Below are positions 7,022 through 30,551 of a stretch of 64,000 bases of DNA, one piece after another. The stretch is from the sequence record OM386661.1; one strand, written 5' to 3'. The notes below the pieces were generated by a model that had not been told where the DNA came from, made no database searches, and saw nothing but the letters and a program-made list of their open reading frames with translations. The first letter of the stretch is position 1. Every line of letters begins with the position of its first letter. The position numbers were made by a program, and so were the translations under genes. Origin of the DNA: Escherichia phage vB_EcoM_ESCO45.

Positions 7022-8623
7022 ATGGACTTAAATACTGTTAAGCAGAAGCGAGTGGAAGATGTTAGGAAAGTCCTAGCTGGAGAGTTGGGGCTTTCTGATG
7101 AAGTAAAAGAAATTATTAAATCATTCGGTAAAGACCCCTCTAAATTCCTTCCAACTCAAATTCTGACTTTATTAAGATACACACCAGACCAAGTTCGCCT
7201 CATCTTTAAATTGATGACTGATAAGAACTATGTAGCCCCTCAGCCGGGTTCTCAAGAGGTCTTTTTAAACACTAATGCTGACTTGGTTCTTTATGGTGGT
7301 GCTGCTGGTGCTGGTAAGACTGCCGCATTGTTAATGGACTCTTTAAGATTTATTGAAGACCCTAACTATAATGCTGTGTATTTCCGTCGAAACACAACAC
7401 AGTTACAAGGTGGTTTATGGCCTGCTGCAAAGAAACTATTTGGTAAGTTTGGTGGGATTCCTCACGAGCAGAAAATGACTATCACATTCCCTTCTGGGGC
7501 AACTATCAAGTTTACCTACCTAGAACTTGAAAAGCACGCTGAAGGTCATCAGGGTATTGAATACTCAGCTATTTACTTTGATGAAGGTACACACTTCTCT
7601 GCTTCACAGATTTCATACCTACAAACCCGTCTACGTTCTGGTGCTGATGGTGATTCATACATGAAGATTTCCATGAACCCAGATAGAGACCACTTTATTT
7701 ACGATTGGGTAGAACCATTCTTAGATGAAGAAGGTTATCCAGACCCTGAAAAGTGTGGTCGTATTCGTTGGTATGTAATGAATGATGGTGTGATGGTTTC
7801 TGATTGGGAGAGAGACAAGATTATTGAAATGTTCCCTCTTGAGATTCCTCAAACATACACCTTTATCTCTGGTACGATTGATGATAACCCAATCCTTGAC
7901 TTCTTAGAGCCTAAGTACCGTGGTAAGTTGGAAAACAACACTCCTGTAAACGTTGCAAGACTTCGTTTTGGTAACTGGAAGGCTCGTGCAGAAGGTTCAA
8001 ACTACTGGCAAAGACAATGGTGTGAGATTGTTGATTCACTCCCAGAAGATGTATTTGATGTTAGAGCATGGGACTTAGCAGCAACTTTACCATCTGAGGT
8101 TAACCCTAATCCAGACTGGACAGCAGGTGTTAAGATGGGTAAATCTAAAAAAGACGGTTGCTATTATATCATTGATGTAGTAAGATTTAGAGATAGACCC
8201 TCTGGAGTCGAAACACAAATTAATTTGACTGCTGAAAGTGACGGTAAGCGAACTGGTATTTTTATCCCTCAAGACCCAGGCGCTGCTGGTAAATCCTACG
8301 CAACATCCCTCATCAGGAAACTTGCCGAGAAAGGCTATCGTGCAAGAGCTAAACCAACAAATAAAGATAAAGTTACCCGCTTTGCGGGATTTTCTGCTGC
8401 TTCTGAAGCTGGACTTGTAAAAGTCTTGAGAGGTAGTTGGAATGAAGCTTACTTTCAAGAGCTTGAAGGCTTTTGTGGTGATGGCAAATCTAAAGATGAC
8501 CAAGTGGATGCTACCAGTGATGCTTTCAACAGTCTTAATGAAGTTAAATTATTCAAGCCACCATCAATGGGTTCTCACACAGACTTAGTGAGAGGAAACC
8601 CATATGAGGGGCTTAGACGTTGA
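7022..8623 (+). CDS. terL: terminase large subunit
   Basis: Walker A LYGGAAGAGKT, acidic nuclease-like C-terminal half; GGAGG RBS 7 nt before ATG at 7022 (track start 7007). Confidence 0.85.
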   Translation: MDLNTVKQKRVEDVRKVLAGELGLSDEVKEIIKSFGKDPSKFLPTQILTLLRYTPDQVRLIFKLMTDKNYVAPQPGSQEVFLNTNADLVLYGGAAGAGKTAALLMDSLRFIEDPNYNAVYFRRNTTQLQGGLWPAAKKLFGKFGGIPHEQKMTITFPSGATIKFTYLELEKHAEGHQGIEYSAIYFDEGTHFSASQISYLQTRLRSGADGDSYMKISMNPDRDHFIYDWVEPFLDEEGYPDPEKCGRIRWYVMNDGVMVSDWERDKIIEMFPLEIPQTYTFISGTIDDNPILDFLEPKYRGKLENNTPVNVARLRFGNWKARAEGSNYWQRQWCEIVDSLPEDVFDVRAWDLAATLPSEVNPNPDWTAGVKMGKSKKDGCYYIIDVVRFRDRPSGVETQINLTAESDGKRTGIFIPQDPGAAGKSYATSLIRKLAEKGYRARAKPTNKDKVTRFAGFSAASEAGLVKVLRGSWNEAYFQELEGFCGDGKSKDDQVDATSDAFNSLNEVKLFKPPSMGSHTDLVRGNPYEGLRR

Positions 8624-18288: not shown

Positions 18289-26319
<8,031 letters not shown>

Positions 26320-26321
26320 TA

Positions 26322-27470
26322 ATGGCAGTAGGTGAAATTCAAATTAGTGCCTTGCCTCAAGCAGCCTTACCGATTGACCTTAGTGATATCTTCCATCTTA
26401 AACAGGGTATCGAGGATAAGAGATGTACTCTTGAGCAATTACTTGCTCCACACTCAAGCCTAAGAAATAACCCTCATGGTGTTACTAAGACACAAATTGG
26501 TTTAGATAACGTTATTAATGCTCTCCAGTTAGTTGCTGAAAATAACTTATCAGACATTGTTAGTGTAGCTGAGGCAAGAGCAAATCTACAGATTATGTCT
26601 TCAGAAGAGGTTAATAATCTTATTCAACAGCATATTGATGATAAGAGTAACCCACACAACACCACTAAGGCACAGGTTGGGTTAAGCAATGTTCAGAACT
26701 GGGTGACATCTAACCTTTATAATGAGGATGCAGATAAGTATGCTACAGCAAGAGCAGTAAATAACTTGTACAAGGCTGTTCAGGCTTCTTATCCAGTAGG
26801 TACTATCCATCTCTCTATGAATCCTGCAAACCCTTCTACATATTTAATTTGTGGAGGTACTTGGGAGTTAGTTTCAAGAGGAAGAGCACTTGTAGGTTAT
26901 GATAGTGCTTCTAGGCCAGTTGGTTCAACGTTTGGTTCGCAGACTACTGCACTGACAGTTAACAACATTCCTGCACATACTCACTCAGTATACGTCACTG
27001 GTGGTGGTCACACACACGGTGCAACGGCATCTATCAGTGCTTTTGACTACGGTACTAAAGGGACTACAACGTTTGACTATGGAACAAAGACTGTATCTAC
27101 TTATGACTATGGTAACAGAACAACCAGTGCTGCTGGTTTAACACAAACAACATTCATTAATCGTGGTTATGCTGATGGTGGTTGGAGAGGTTTATCAGTT
27201 GAGGGGGCAAGCTATGACCCAAGAGCTACGCTGACAACAGCTAACAACCACACTCACTCTGTAGCAATTGGTGCGCATAATCACACAGTTGAGATTGGTG
27301 CTCACAGTCATTCTGTTGCAATTGGCTCCCACAACCACTCAGCAACAGTAACAGTAACCGGAGCAGGTGAGCATTCGCACTCTGGCACAACTGGCACAAC
27401 TGGTTCTGGTCAAGCATTTAGCGTTGAACAGCCATCCTTCGTATTGTATGTATGGCAGAGAACAGCTTAA
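26322..27470 (+). CDS. tail fibre protein with His-box (HxH) repeats
   Basis: Repeated HTHS / HNHT / HSHS motifs like metal-binding His boxes of T4 gp37-type fibre tips; C-terminus shared with next fibre gene. Confidence 0.65.
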   Translation: MAVGEIQISALPQAALPIDLSDIFHLKQGIEDKRCTLEQLLAPHSSLRNNPHGVTKTQIGLDNVINALQLVAENNLSDIVSVAEARANLQIMSSEEVNNLIQQHIDDKSNPHNTTKAQVGLSNVQNWVTSNLYNEDADKYATARAVNNLYKAVQASYPVGTIHLSMNPANPSTYLICGGTWELVSRGRALVGYDSASRPVGSTFGSQTTALTVNNIPAHTHSVYVTGGGHTHGATASISAFDYGTKGTTTFDYGTKTVSTYDYGNRTTSAAGLTQTTFINRGYADGGWRGLSVEGASYDPRATLTTANNHTHSVAIGAHNHTVEIGAHSHSVAIGSHNHSATVTVTGAGEHSHSGTTGTTGSGQAFSVEQPSFVLYVWQRTA

Positions 27471-27482
27471 TTTCTTTACAGG

Positions 27483-27506
27483 GGCTGTATAGCCCCTTTT
27501 AAGAGG
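27483..27506 (+). terminator. rho-independent terminator
   Basis: GGGGCT-GTAT-AGCCCC hairpin followed by TTTT. Confidence 0.5.
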
Positions 27507-27516
27507 AAAATTTATA

Positions 27517-29871
27517 ATGGCAGATTACAAGTTGAGTGAATTAAACTCAATTGATACAATTCGTTCAGACGACCTTCTTCATGTCAGAGTTAAAAAGAGA
27601 CCTGAAATGCTGGGTGATGAAGACCGTCGAATGACCTATCAAGACTTCTTAGCATCTTTTAAACTTGAAAGATTTGTTCAGATTGCTGGTAGCACTATGA
27701 CGGGTGACTTAGGGATTGTTAAGTTACTTTATGGTGGTAAGGCAGTATTTGACCCAACAGGCTCTTCTGAGATTACTATTGGGGATGTTTTAAAGACTTT
27801 TAAAATTAACGCAAATGGTCTTAAACTAACTATTGCAGATGCTTCAAGGTCGGCAACTGTTTATCATACTTTGAATAAACCAAGTCCTAATGAACTTGGG
27901 ATGAGAACTAATGAAGAAAATGATGCAAGATATGCAAGGCTTGCTGTAACAAACACATTCTCTGGGACTCAAAATATTCTCTCTGACAATGAAGCCCTTA
28001 TTTTTAAGAATACCACACAAGGGATGCCACTCTATATTCGTGGTCAAGATGCAGATGGCACTAACAGATGGTATCTAGGTAATGATAATAGAAACACAGA
28101 CAACCTTGTTTTAAAAAACGTTAAATCTGGTGCATACGTAGCGATTTTAGCTAACCTAATCTCTGTGAATAAATCAATTCAAATCACTGGCCAAGTTCAA
28201 CCTTCGGACTTCTCTAACTTAGATGCTAGATACTTCACTCAGACAGTAGCTAATCAGAGATTTGCACAGTTAACTGCTGATAATACTTTTAGTGGCTCTA
28301 ACACTTTCAACCAACTAAATGTTTTCAAAAAAGATGGTGAAGTAATTAGGCTACAGAATGCCAATGCTGCACAACCATTGTACATTAAAGCGATTGATAG
28401 CACAGGTGCCAACAGATGGTACATTGGTAATAATAATGGAGGTGATAACGTAGCTCTAGAAAACTACAAAACTAGTGGCAAAATTACTGTAGGGACAAGT
28501 GTTGATATCAATAAAACACTAACTGTAACTGGTCAAGTACAACCTTCCGATTGGGCTAACATTGACTCTAGATACATTCCAGCAGCTACTTTGAGCAATC
28601 TTGCTAAGCTAAGCGATGTAAACACTTTCAGGTCTGCGCAAGTTATCAACCAGAATGGCTCACTGTTACGGCTAAAGAACACCACACAAGATAATGAGCT
28701 ATACATTGCTGGTCATAATGCTGATAATGCGAGAAGATGGTACATTGGTAGCGGGGAAAGAGACAACCCAACAAGGCTTATTATCCACAACGACAGAACT
28801 TTAACTACGATTTATATGCAAGATGATTTCTTGCTGAATAAAACTGTTAGAATTACTGGTCAAGTTCAACCATCTGATTGGTCTAACTTAGATGCTAGAT
28901 ACTTCACTCAGGCAGCAGCTAATCAGAGATTCATGGTTGCAGGTTCTACAGGAGAAGCTACAGAGCAGAATGCAGATGGTGTGGCATGGAACGCTAAAAC
29001 AGGCTTATATAATGTAACCTCAACAAATGCTGATTACACAGCACTTGTGTTTCAAATGTATCAGGGGGTTAACTCTTCTACTGCCTGTGCGCAATTAAAG
29101 TTCCAGTATAAGAACGGTGGGATGTGGTACAGAACATCTGTAGATAGTAAAGGCTTTGAAGCTAAGTGGTCTAAGATTTACACAGAAGCACAGAAGCCAA
29201 CACCTTCAGAGCTTGGTGCATACACTAAAGCAGAAACTGACCAGAAAATTGCACAGGCAGTAAGTGACTCTACAGACCTTAACAAAATCTATCCAGTAGG
29301 TATTGTAACGTGGTTTAACAGTAATGTTGACCCTAATACAGCACTGCCTGGTCTAACTTGGACGTATCTGAACAACGGTGTTGGTAGAACTATCAGAATT
29401 GCAGCAGCAAACGGTTCAGATGTTGCTACAACAGGTGGTTCAGATTCTGTTACGTTAGCAGTTGGAAACTTACCTTCACACACTCATAGTTTCTCTGCGA
29501 CTACCTCATCGTTTGACTACGGAACAAAAAACACTAACACGACTGGTGCTCACACCCACACTGTAAGTGGTTCTGCTGCATCTGCTGGTAACCACAACCA
29601 CGCTATCTCATGGATTGGTCAGAACTCTACACACTATTCTGGTGGTGGTGGTGGTAAAATCGGTACAGGACCGGGTTACACTGATTCTGCTGGTGCTCAC
29701 ACCCACACAATCTCTGGTACTGCTGCATCAAATGGTAACCATGCTCACAGTGTTGGTATTGGTGCTCACACCCATACAGTAAGCGGTAACACTGGCGGTA
29801 CAGGTTCTGGTTCAGCATTTAGTGTTACTAACCAGTTCTATAAGTTAATGGCTTGGGTAAGAACTGCTTAA
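27517..29871 (+). CDS. long tail fibre protein with internal repeats and His-box tip
   Basis: 784 aa; about four ~100-aa repeats (GQVQPSDW/FSNLDARYFTQ...RWYIGN); C-terminal HTHT/HNHA/HAHS boxes; last ~20 aa similar to 26322..27470. Confidence 0.7.
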   Translation: MADYKLSELNSIDTIRSDDLLHVRVKKRPEMLGDEDRRMTYQDFLASFKLERFVQIAGSTMTGDLGIVKLLYGGKAVFDPTGSSEITIGDVLKTFKINANGLKLTIADASRSATVYHTLNKPSPNELGMRTNEENDARYARLAVTNTFSGTQNILSDNEALIFKNTTQGMPLYIRGQDADGTNRWYLGNDNRNTDNLVLKNVKSGAYVAILANLISVNKSIQITGQVQPSDFSNLDARYFTQTVANQRFAQLTADNTFSGSNTFNQLNVFKKDGEVIRLQNANAAQPLYIKAIDSTGANRWYIGNNNGGDNVALENYKTSGKITVGTSVDINKTLTVTGQVQPSDWANIDSRYIPAATLSNLAKLSDVNTFRSAQVINQNGSLLRLKNTTQDNELYIAGHNADNARRWYIGSGERDNPTRLIIHNDRTLTTIYMQDDFLLNKTVRITGQVQPSDWSNLDARYFTQAAANQRFMVAGSTGEATEQNADGVAWNAKTGLYNVTSTNADYTALVFQMYQGVNSSTACAQLKFQYKNGGMWYRTSVDSKGFEAKWSKIYTEAQKPTPSELGAYTKAETDQKIAQAVSDSTDLNKIYPVGIVTWFNSNVDPNTALPGLTWTYLNNGVGRTIRIAAANGSDVATTGGSDSVTLAVGNLPSHTHSFSATTSSFDYGTKNTNTTGAHTHTVSGSAASAGNHNHAISWIGQNSTHYSGGGGGKIGTGPGYTDSAGAHTHTISGTAASNGNHAHSVGIGAHTHTVSGNTGGTGSGSAFSVTNQFYKLMAWVRTA
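28190..28930 (+). repeat. intragenic tandem repeats (about 300-bp units) in long tail fibre gene
   Basis: Protein motif GQVQPSD[WF][SA]N[LI]D[AS]RY recurs about every 100 aa; boundaries approximate. Confidence 0.5.
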
Positions 29872-29878
29872 TCCCTTG

Positions 29879-29907
29879 TTGACTGATTGTTAAGATGGTG
29901 TTAATAT
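29879..29907 (+). promoter_or_regulatory. sigma70-like promoter
   Basis: TTGACT-17-TAATAT between tail fibre stop and the holin-like gene. Confidence 0.5.
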
Positions 29908-29950
29908 TCTTTATGGGTATTCTCACCATCTTGGCTGATGAGGTGATTAA

Positions 29951-30145
29951 ATGCCTACAATCCTAGCAATTCTCCTAAAAAATCTAGGTAGCTTCTTCTG
30001 GAAGCTCATTTTATCCCTTCTAAGTGAATACATGATTGAGAAAGTGTTCTTTAAGCTTGCAAGATATCTTGCGAGTAAAACAGACACACCTATTGATGAT
30101 GAGTTCGTAGACAACTTAGAAAAAGCTTTTAAGGGGGAGGAATAA
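29951..30145 (+). CDS. putative holin-like small membrane protein
   Basis: 64 aa, hydrophobic N-terminal helix, charged acidic C-terminus. Confidence 0.35.
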   Translation: MPTILAILLKNLGSFFWKLILSLLSEYMIEKVFFKLARYLASKTDTPIDDEFVDNLEKAFKGEE

Positions 30146-30511
30146 ATGAAGTGGCTAGAGGAAGCTTTTAAAAACAATATTGGTGCAATTGTAGTTGGTA
30201 TTTTTAGTGTTATCGGAATGTATACCACCATGCAAGTGTCAAGTGGTAAACAAGAGGTGTCTGTCAAAACAAAGTTACAACAGTTGGATAATTACACAAG
30301 TAGTAACTATTCAGCTATTCGTGATTTACAGTCTGACATGAGACTGCTTCAGTTAGGGATGGAGAACCAGAAAGTTCAGTTAGAGAATGTTAAGGGTGAA
30401 AACGCAAAACTTACCAAAACTCTTGATAAATTCTCTGACAGTGTGAATAATCTGGCTCAATCAGTATCAGCCCTCCAAGCTATTACTGAGAAGAATACAG
30501 AAGAACACTGA
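30146..30511 (+). CDS. membrane-anchored coiled-coil protein (spanin-like or lysis accessory, putative)
   Basis: N-terminal transmembrane helix followed by coiled-coil heptads. Confidence 0.3.
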   Translation: MKWLEEAFKNNIGAIVVGIFSVIGMYTTMQVSSGKQEVSVKTKLQQLDNYTSSNYSAIRDLQSDMRLLQLGMENQKVQLENVKGENAKLTKTLDKFSDSVNNLAQSVSALQAITEKNTEEH

Positions 30512-30522
30512 AAATAAAATTT

Positions 30523-30551
30523 TAAGGCTCCTTTTTACGGGAGCCTTTTTT
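30523..30551. terminator. bidirectional rho-independent terminator between convergent gene blocks
   Basis: GGCTCC-TTTTTAC-GGGAGCC hairpin with T-run on plus strand and A/T-run for minus strand. Confidence 0.6.

Follow-up and report, generated by a model that had tools for sequence, protein, structure and literature searches.

For phages of the Felixounavirus type, fiber tips resembling T4 gp37 and a shaft built of repeats are already known from VpaE1 (2015), Sf14 (2025), and Bas63 (2025). Homology to the T4 gp37 adhesin was found for two VpaE1 proteins, gp74 and gp75 (PMC4690856), and the reports on VpaE1 and on the Shigella phage Sf14 describe T4 gp37-like tips, T7 gp17 pyramid-like and Mu-like domains, no chaperones, and the possible use of two receptors (PMC4690856, PMC11821841). 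Cryo-electron microscopy (cryo-EM) of gp26 and gp27 from Bas63 (Escherichia phage JohannRWettstein) revealed collar-needle-head tips, 7 and 6 di-histidine motifs, respectively, and five shaft domains, and the gp25-type protein serves as the attachment point for the long fiber (PMC12609058). The needle of T4 gp37 contains seven irons along its length, with H929/H931 being indispensable (PMC6957217).

Here, we describe a pair of fiber genes in a 64-kb window (the whole stretch of DNA that was analyzed); the DNA is 98.5% identical to that of Felixounavirus ESCO56 and is matched by 238 phage records. Very probably, they encode two Felixounavirus fibers that each end in a T4 gp37-type tip, with the shaft of the longer one being a mosaic that evolves by cassette exchange; the basis for this reading is gene identity, homology, the correspondence of His boxes, the pattern of variability, and the mosaic left by recombination. 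Since His-box tips and a repeat shaft have been described before, the window adds nothing fundamental; the reassortment of shaft cassettes and a short-fiber head that is invariant in 32 phages are small additions to the published picture.

Fiber genes and their orthologues

The LTF platform gene and the two fiber genes described here are located on the plus strand, and gene order and lengths in this region are identical to those of Bas63 gp23 to gp27 (wedge 2, wedge 1, long tail fiber [LTF] platform, short tail fiber [STF], and LTF). The LTF platform protein of 100 amino acids (positions 26017 to 26319; phrog_4141) is the orthologue of Bas63 gp25, with the position and length of bas63_0025. 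It is followed by an open reading frame (ORF) at positions 26322 to 27470 encoding 382 amino acids, which matches phrog_2097 (E value of 9.5e-127), is 97% identical to Bas63 gp26, and has Sf14 gp52 and VpaE1 gp74 as further orthologues. The next ORF, at positions 27517 to 29871, encodes 784 amino acids, matches phrog_4277 over the full length, and has the same sequence as the tail fiber protein of ESCO45 (100% identity); its orthologues are Bas63 gp27, Sf14 gp53, and VpaE1 gp75. Both ORFs have the coordinates given in the original prediction, which had been made from the DNA letters, and, judged by these matches, they are the STF and LTF genes of a Felixounavirus myophage.

Bas63 belongs to the same genus and shares with the window the gene order, the fiber lengths, the number of HxH boxes (7 and 6), and a multi-domain LTF shaft. 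Its gp27 is only 75% identical to the LTF over the full length; the difference stems from repeat bodies 1 and 2 and from domain 5 of the shaft (see below), which belong to other cassette types (46%, 32%, and 44% identity, respectively). The fiber pairs of Sf14 and VpaE1 are likewise orthologous, but these phages have different hosts, the head types are others (12 to 29% head identity), and the STF carries nine HxH boxes instead of seven. A promoter/terminator scan found no terminator between the STF and LTF genes, and promoter-like sites were no more common than in shuffled sequence. A counterpart of the T4 chaperone gp38 was not found in the 64-kb window (tblastn; no match better than an E value of 0.2), suggesting that folding differs from that in T4. 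The ORFs downstream of the LTF gene belong to phrog_402 and phrog_4038, the latter being labeled as a holin in relatives; a U/Tfa-type chaperone gene is absent there.

Tips of the T4 gp37 type

All of the HTHS, HNHT, HSHS, and HAHS motifs and the C-terminal strings that the original prediction had quoted were found in the fibers. The STF contains seven HxH boxes (at amino acids 219, 230, 310, 319, 328, 337, and 351) and the LTF six (at 655, 679, 693, 728, 742, and 751). In a phmmer search against the PDB, STF residues 146 to 352 matched residues 18 to 229 of 2XGF (E value of 2.5e-13), and LTF residues 650 to 763 matched residues 94 to 218 (E value of 8.1e-17); 2XGF is the entry in which the tip of T4 gp37 was solved by crystallography. 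A three-way alignment paired the T4 boxes at 883, 915, 929, 966, 980, and 989 (positions read from the gp37 sequence) with the six LTF boxes in order, such that six of the seven T4 boxes are positionally conserved and the seventh is missing from the LTF. The spacings of 14 and 9 residues agree between the two proteins, and the LTF tip loop between the ascending and descending boxes (amino acids 696 to 727; nucleotides 29602 to 29697) comprises ∼32 amino acids versus ∼34 in T4. In the STF, four boxes are aligned and three are its own; compared with T4 gp37, the boxes are distributed differently (two ascending and five descending) and the head is longer. Identity between T4 gp37 and the window fibers is only 32 to 37%, but collar, HxH-box needle, and head are recognizable from sequence in both. 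The idea that the His-box regions form a T4 gp37-type tip is thus supported by the 2XGF matches of both fibers, the one-to-one correspondence of boxes between T4 and LTF, and the similar appearance of the Bas63 tips in cryo-EM. In T4, Fe2+ is coordinated octahedrally by six histidines at each site of the homotrimer (PMC6957217), and metal coordination by both window tips would be expected from this.

The STF tip begins with a collar of the Gp10_C/tail-collar type (amino acids 146 to 215; positions 26757 to 26966), which scores 65.9 bits with PF21939 (Pfam gathering threshold of 27 bits), aligns to the 2XGF collar and to T4 gp10, is conserved in relatives, and is modeled by AF2 with a pLDDT of 73 to 91. 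The needle and head (amino acids 216 to 355; positions 26967 to 27386), defined by HxH counts, the three-way alignment, and variability, comprise an ascending strand with two HxH boxes and three (F/Y)DYG(T/N)(K/R) decapeptides, a variable head at about amino acids 261 to 309 (nucleotides 27102 to 27248), recognized by its variability among relatives, and a descending strand with five boxes. The C-terminal segment (amino acids 356 to 382; positions 27387 to 27467) ends with GSGQAFSVEQPSFVLYVWQRTA and shows about 90 to 97% column conservation and a pLDDT of 84 to 88. The LTF collar (amino acids 587 to 650; positions 29275 to 29466) aligns to the T4 gp37 collar and is 89 to 94% conserved; its Gp10_C score of 23.1 bits is below the threshold. 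The LTF needle and head (amino acids 651 to 757; positions 29467 to 29787), defined by the 2XGF match and the HxH alignment, have three ascending boxes (655, 679, and 693) and three descending boxes (728, 742, and 751), with a variable region at amino acids 681 to 740. The C-terminal segment (amino acids 758 to 784; positions 29788 to 29868) ends with GSGSAFSVTNQFYKLMAWVRTA, is 93 to 98% conserved, and occurs as one sequence type in 121 LTFs.

The variability of both fibers would fit a chain reversal, since conserved His boxes lie on either side of a variable head and the C-terminal segment is conserved as well; the single-chain AF2 models gave no resolved geometry. The Bas63 maps, which are too poor for side-chain modeling, support chain reversal at the head at the domain level (PMC12609058). 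For the STF, the needle was not reproduced by single-chain AF2 (66-sequence alignment), which yielded a mean pLDDT of 62.9 and values below 50 in the head, and Foldseek found only weak gp10 C-terminal matches for this model in the PDB (E value of about 0.01), without 2XGF among them. In the model of the full LTF, the tip (amino acids 584 to 784) has a pLDDT of about 30, and only the shaft domains are usable. Since a single-chain model is uninformative for an intertwined trimer, that of the STF was not counted against a needle, and the tip geometry rests on sequence homology and the published maps. The last ∼20 amino acids of both fibers are probably scaffold and not the receptor-binding part, as they are 88 to 98% conserved across relatives and by analogy to T4 gp37 would return to the collar.

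There is next to no chance that the His-rich runs lack a structural role and represent linkers of low complexity or motifs that arose by chance. The moderate or low AF2 confidence in these regions would fit such a reading, but by chance only 0.99 (STF) and 0.34 (LTF) HxH boxes are expected on average, and none of 50,000 residue shuffles reached the observed counts. In addition, the boxes coincide in the alignment with those that bind iron in 2XGF, those of the STF are predicted to be beta strands, and histidines 219, 221, 310, 312, 337, and 339 are invariant in 66 STF homologues; the linker or chance reading is effectively refuted. A relation between the two tips themselves is evident from BLASTP, which aligns STF residues 157 to 382 with LTF residues 592 to 784 (32% identity; E value of 1e-13). 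The original prediction had called the fiber ends near-identical and the tips duplicated. The final ∼20 amino acids are indeed similar, but with 12 of the last 22 identical (55%) they are not near-identical, and the claim of duplication was not upheld. The genes are adjacent and on the same strand, with the same C-terminal domain order and a common ending motif, as would be expected if the tips had arisen by a recent tandem duplication in this phage lineage and had been kept similar by gene conversion. Against this highly improbable scenario, the score of the STF-LTF comparison (54 bits) is no higher than the BLASTP score of STF-T4 (60 bits) or LTF-T4 (77 bits), which argues for an old shared module and not a recent duplication. 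The longest DNA stretches common to both tips are 36 to 58 nucleotides (nt) at 72 to 81% identity (36 nt at 81% for the fiber ends), and Felixounavirus, Mooglevirus, and Suspvirus phages alike have fibers of both types. The DNA repeat comparison gave no sign of exchange between the STF and LTF tips in this genome, and recent duplication or gene conversion was rejected on account of the bit scores and because no long stretch of DNA is common to both.

Domains of the LTF shaft

The LTF repeats were defined from DNA repeats and a hidden Markov model (HMM) built on the repeat units; self-BLASTP of the LTF returned the identity match only and did not recover them. Repeat 1 (amino acids 123 to 229; positions 27883 to 28203) consists of a helical linker and a beta-rich body that resembles the pyramid domain of T7 gp17. 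Repeat 2 (amino acids 230 to 343; positions 28204 to 28545) and repeat 3 (amino acids 344 to 452; positions 28546 to 28872) are, like repeat 1, supported by Pfam, DNA repeats, the unit HMM, profile comparison, and AF2, with Foldseek in addition for repeat 1. A partial fourth copy contains the linker motif only (amino acids 453 to 473, SDWSNLDARYFTQAAANQRF; positions 28873 to 28935), detected as domain 4 by hmmsearch (E value of 2e-5) and by DNA repeat family D3 (86% identity). Tandem repeats had thus been noticed correctly, but not their number, given as about four: there are three full copies of ∼110 amino acids and a partial fourth linker. Among themselves, the full repeats share 35 to 38% identity; in the DNA they recur with periods of 342 and 327 nt, and Pfam PF20744 (gp37_trimer) covers three stretches of the LTF (E value of 5e-63).

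The repeat bodies, modeled with a pLDDT of 80 to 89, are similar to the T7 gp17 pyramid domain in profile (4A0T/4A0U; E value of 1e-7) and in fold (4A0T; root mean square deviation of 1.6 Å over 65 columns in Foldseek). Unlike T7 gp17, the LTF carries this domain three times in tandem, with conserved helical linkers between the copies, and has no T7-type tip domain. The shaft as a whole resembles the rod repeats of T4 gp34 (4UXG, 5NXF, and 5NXH), and Foldseek matched the LTF model to 4UXG (E value of 1.2e-5) and to Mu 8JU3 (E value of 1.8e-5). Each window fiber is a single polypeptide, whereas the T4 fiber is an assembly of gp34, gp35, gp36, and gp37. Domain 5 (amino acids 471 to 586; positions 28927 to 29274) belongs to PF12604 (gp37_C; Pfam E value of 1.6e-18; PDB 8JU3, E value of 2.2e-17), is also supported by the Foldseek match to 8JU3 and by tblastn matches in P2, P1, and Mu, and is homologous to Mu gpS, P2 gpH, and P1 gpS. 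Domains of the PF12604 type are a classic mosaic tail fiber module common to unrelated coliphages. In contrast to the Mu, P2, and P1 fibers, the domain is internal in the LTF shaft and followed by a gp37-type tip, with no U/Tfa-type chaperone gene downstream.

Variation among relatives and receptor use

Variation across relatives is concentrated in two places, the head that separates the ascending from the descending His boxes and the repeat bodies of the LTF. Among 16 phages, identity drops to 0.55 to 0.68 at STF residues 261 to 320 and to 0.48 to 0.59 at LTF residues 681 to 740; collar and C-terminal segment stay at 0.88 to 0.98. The proposal of a recombination-driven host-range module agrees with this peak in the head and with the mosaic structure of the LTF described below, both seen in comparison with relatives that include phages of other hosts.

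The LTF is a recombinational mosaic, in which the repeat bodies are discrete cassettes that reassort at conserved linkers. Relaxed constraint and drift by point mutation could in principle generate variable bodies; these are shaft domains rich in beta structure, in which few residues are invariant, and tolerance of missense mutations is listed as a possibility by the authors of the Bas63 study (PMC12609058). Drift is a very unlikely explanation, however, as pairwise identities of the LTF segments are bimodal (20 to 40% or 60 to 100%), with 9 to 13 discrete types per segment, 71 type combinations among 121 LTFs, and, for several segment pairs, the two commonest types in every one of the four possible combinations. 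Furthermore, DNA identity to close relatives jumps between >90% and 42 to 60% exactly at the conserved linkers, and there are body types that occupy position 1 in some phages but position 3 in others. For the STF, it is conceivable, though rather unlikely, that only the LTF binds a receptor and that the STF tip mainly serves for docking to the tail sheath or as a mechanical trigger, with no dual specificity. In the extended tail of Bas63, the STF head is placed at the tenth ring of the sheath, between domains D2 and D3 (PMC12609058), and diversity is far lower in the STF than in the LTF (107 to 347 members per 90% identity cluster versus mostly 1). The STF head is, on the other hand, the most variable part between phages of different hosts (12 to 22% identity, versus 81 to 97% for the N terminus), and the head type of the window recurs with 100% identity in 32 phages, most of which come from isolations on Escherichia coli K-12 in a sampling that is strongly K-12 biased; both observations fit a host-facing surface and not a contact with the conserved sheath. 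Dual receptor specificity of STF and LTF, a published hypothesis for Sf14 (PMC11821841), is unproven, and what suggests it here is the correlation with the isolation host.

From homology and the cryo-EM of the orthologues, each fiber would form a homotrimer that is held at the baseplate by its N-terminal end. In the tip, the chain is predicted to run from a globular collar along an ascending strand to a small variable distal head and back to the collar along a descending strand. In the resulting six-stranded needle, each chain would contribute one HxH box per site, and the six histidines of a site are expected to hold a metal ion, which is Fe(II) in T4; seven such sites are predicted for the STF versus six for the LTF. 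The variable head would contact the lipopolysaccharide (LPS) core, and the His boxes, the collar, and the last ∼25 residues are probably conserved because they form the scaffold. The LTF shaft leads from three repeats resembling the T7 gp17 pyramid and the T4 gp34 rod via the Mu/P2-type domain to the tip, with repeat bodies and head probably evolving via the exchange of discrete cassettes at conserved linkers. The order of events may be T4-like, the LTF acting first and reversibly and the STF thereafter. More tentatively, and with a low probability, the exchangeable LTF repeats might be more than passive spacers and add lateral recognition of the host surface or evade a fiber-sensing defense, the invariant STF head might be an adhesin for the K-12 LPS core, and host range might be combinatorial, set by two tips and the shaft cassettes.

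Felix O1-like phages serve in the diagnostics and biocontrol of Salmonella and E. coli, and their fibers set the host range. Cassette boundaries at conserved linkers and an STF head type that is invariant in K-12-isolated phages may aid the design of fiber swaps.

Fibre genes and their setting

The genes for the short tail fibre (STF; 26322 to 27470, plus strand, 382 aa) and the long tail fibre (LTF; 27517 to 29871, plus strand, 784 aa) lie where the original prediction had placed them, and the sequences that it quoted are exact. The LTF ORF has 100% identity with the "tail fibers protein" of phage vB_EcoM_ESCO45. The surrounding region (26000 to 30000) shares 98.5% identity with Escherichia phage vB_EcoM_ESCO56 and matches 238 phage records, nearly all of Felixounavirus and other Ounavirinae. 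Gene order and gene lengths in the fibre locus are exactly those of phage Bas63 (JohannRWettstein): baseplate wedge 2 (489 aa, Baseplate_J), wedge 1 (285 aa), the LTF platform (100 aa), the STF (382 aa), and the LTF (784 aa), then two small ORFs and the converging genes for thymidylate synthase and DHFR. Neither a tail-fibre chaperone gene nor a T4 gp38 homologue was found within the window. The N-terminal half of the STF contains the motif NPHxxTKxQxGLxNV twice, 60 aa apart, at aa 50 to 64 (26469 to 26513) and aa 110 to 124 (26649 to 26693).

Located 3' of the LTF gene are two small ORFs (29951 to 30511; 64 and 121 aa; phrog_402 and phrog_4038), the second of which is annotated as a holin in relatives and gave a weak Rz-like spanin match. 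A bidirectional terminator-like hairpin (30524 to 30547; 9-bp stem, T-runs on both sides), near which the GC skew changes sign, separates the late structural/lysis genes from the thymidylate synthase and DHFR genes, which converge on them from the minus strand. At 2364 to 6577 (plus strand) lies an array of 18 tRNA genes, tRNA-His among them; such arrays are typical of Felix O1-like phages (PMC4690856).

His-box tips

The STF contains seven HxH boxes and the LTF six; residue shuffling gave means of 0.99 and 0.34, respectively, and reached the observed counts in 0 of 50,000 shuffles. Among 66 STF homologues, His 219, 221, 310, 312, 337, and 339 are invariant. The two proteins have a common C-terminal module of ∼230 aa (32% identity, E 1e-13), as predicted, and their C-termini, described as both similar and near-identical, are similar, with 12 of the last 22 residues identical. 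Both match the crystal structure of the T4 gp37 receptor-binding tip (2XGF; collar, HxH needle, and head), the STF at aa 146 to 352 (E 2.5e-13), covering collar through needle, and the LTF at aa 650 to 763 (E 8.1e-17). The T4 gp37 sequence has boxes at 883, 915, 929, 966, 980, 989, and 998, and a three-way alignment places the first six at LTF 655, 679, 693, 728, 742, and 751. Their 14- and 9-residue spacings are the same in both proteins, and the tip loop between boxes 3 and 4 measures ∼32 aa in the LTF versus ∼34 aa in T4 gp37. Four STF boxes, the first and three on the descending strand, fit this alignment; the STF also has three boxes of its own (two ascending and five descending in all) and a longer head. 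The boxes of T4 gp37 serve as ligands for seven iron atoms along the needle, H929/H931 being essential (PMC6957217). Homology to this tip upholds the reading of the STF and LTF boxes as a predicted metal-binding needle.

Single-chain AlphaFold2 was of limited use, since the tips are expected to form an intertwined trimer; it yielded no usable model of the LTF tip. For the STF, the model was confident in the collar and C-terminal strand; the head had a pLDDT of <50, and Foldseek gave only weak gp10 C-terminal matches. The His-box stretches were predicted as beta strands rather than unstructured linkers, and the putative needle geometry of both fibres rests on homology and on published structures.

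His-box fibre tips are a feature already known, which the original prediction read correctly. Both fibres of phage VpaE1 were described in 2015 as homologous to the T4 gp37 adhesin, with a highly variable middle of the long fibre (PMC4690856). The 2025 report on Shigella phage Sf14 described a pair of long fibres, possibly with different receptors, and noted domains like the T7 gp17 pyramid and Mu-like ones, a tip resembling that of T4 gp37, and the absence of chaperones (PMC11821841). The 2025 cryo-EM study of Bas63 described both fibres as having a collar, an HxH needle, and a head. It counted seven and six di-histidine motifs, likened the five shaft domains to T4 gp34, and reported variability of tips and shaft without mention of recombination (PMC12609058). 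A recent duplication of the tips is rejected on the bit scores (54 for STF-LTF versus 60 for STF-T4 and 77 for LTF-T4) and on the short common DNA, as the two genes have no common stretch beyond ∼58 nt at 72% identity.

Shaft repeats and cassette exchange

The tandem repeats predicted in the LTF are real at both the DNA (periods of 342 and 327 nt) and protein levels, but instead of about four there are three full units (aa 123 to 229, 230 to 343, and 344 to 452; pairwise identity 35 to 38%), followed by a fourth copy consisting of the ∼20-aa linker motif alone. Pfam likewise marks three gp37_trimer stretches. The repeat-unit profile matches the pyramid domain of T7 fibre gp17 (4A0T/4A0U; E 1e-7). 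In the LTF AlphaFold2 model, confident beta-rich bodies (pLDDT 80 to 89) alternate with low-confidence helical linkers, and the model matches the T4 gp34 rod (4UXG, 5NXF; E ∼1e-5), the Mu fibre (8JU3; E 1.8e-5), and T7 gp17 (rmsd 1.6 Å over 65 columns). Residues 471 to 586 form a PF12604 domain, common to the Mu S, P2 H, and P1 S fibres.

When the STF and LTF genes of 15 Ounavirinae were aligned, the N-termini, collars, His-box strands closest to the collar, and last ∼25 residues were conserved, and conservation fell at STF aa 261 to 320 and LTF aa 681 to 740 (head and adjoining needle). Such a pattern would be expected of a head that contacts the receptor and a common C-terminal motif that acts as scaffold. 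In the LTF, variability extended to the repeat bodies and to domain 5 (aa 471 to 586), with linkers kept. The repeat 2 body has 90 to 91% identity to ekra and JK55 versus 32% to bumzen, Bas63, and C600M2, and repeat 3 shows the reverse; LTF DNA identity switches between >90% and 42 to 60% at the linkers. The variable segments of 121 LTFs sort into 9 to 13 discrete types each, with bimodal identities; 71 type combinations occur, and for several pairs of segments the commonest types appear in all four combinations. Judged from these comparisons, the LTF is a recombinational mosaic. Among the LTF repeat bodies (27958 to 28851 in the window), one type (proteins P0173 and P0230; identity of 65% or more, with a best match of 88% over 76 aa) occupies repeat position 1 in 12 proteins and position 3 in 14, which suggests ectopic exchange between repeats via the common linkers; position 2 types remain at position 2. 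The more distant Erwinia phage phiEa104 (Kolesnikvirus; 4662 to 8071 of its sequence) keeps an STF homologue (45% identity) and has several different tail and tail-fibre genes in place of a single LTF gene.

Tip heads and hosts

The STF head segment (aa 250 to 317; 27069 to 27272) has 100% identity in 32 phage records and 97% identity in another two. K-12 derivatives of E. coli were the isolation host for about 28 of these 34, and their LTFs diverge widely, by up to ∼28%. Phages of Salmonella, O157, E. coli B, Shigella, and Citrobacter have an unrelated STF head (12 to 22% identity) and nine HxH boxes in the STF. The LTF head has 80 to 88% identity among K-12 isolates versus 15 to 42% to others, with one exception, mistaenkt. 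This correlation, drawn under heavy sampling bias, fits both tips facing the host. The invariant STF head may be a determinant for the K-12 LPS core, an intact form of which Bas63 needs, or may reflect sampling bias.

Head variation in relatives and the LTF mosaic support the predicted host-range module; the dual receptor specificity suggested with it is a possibility. Only two points are added to published work: LTF cassettes explicitly reassort, some even changing repeat position, and one invariant STF head is associated with K-12.
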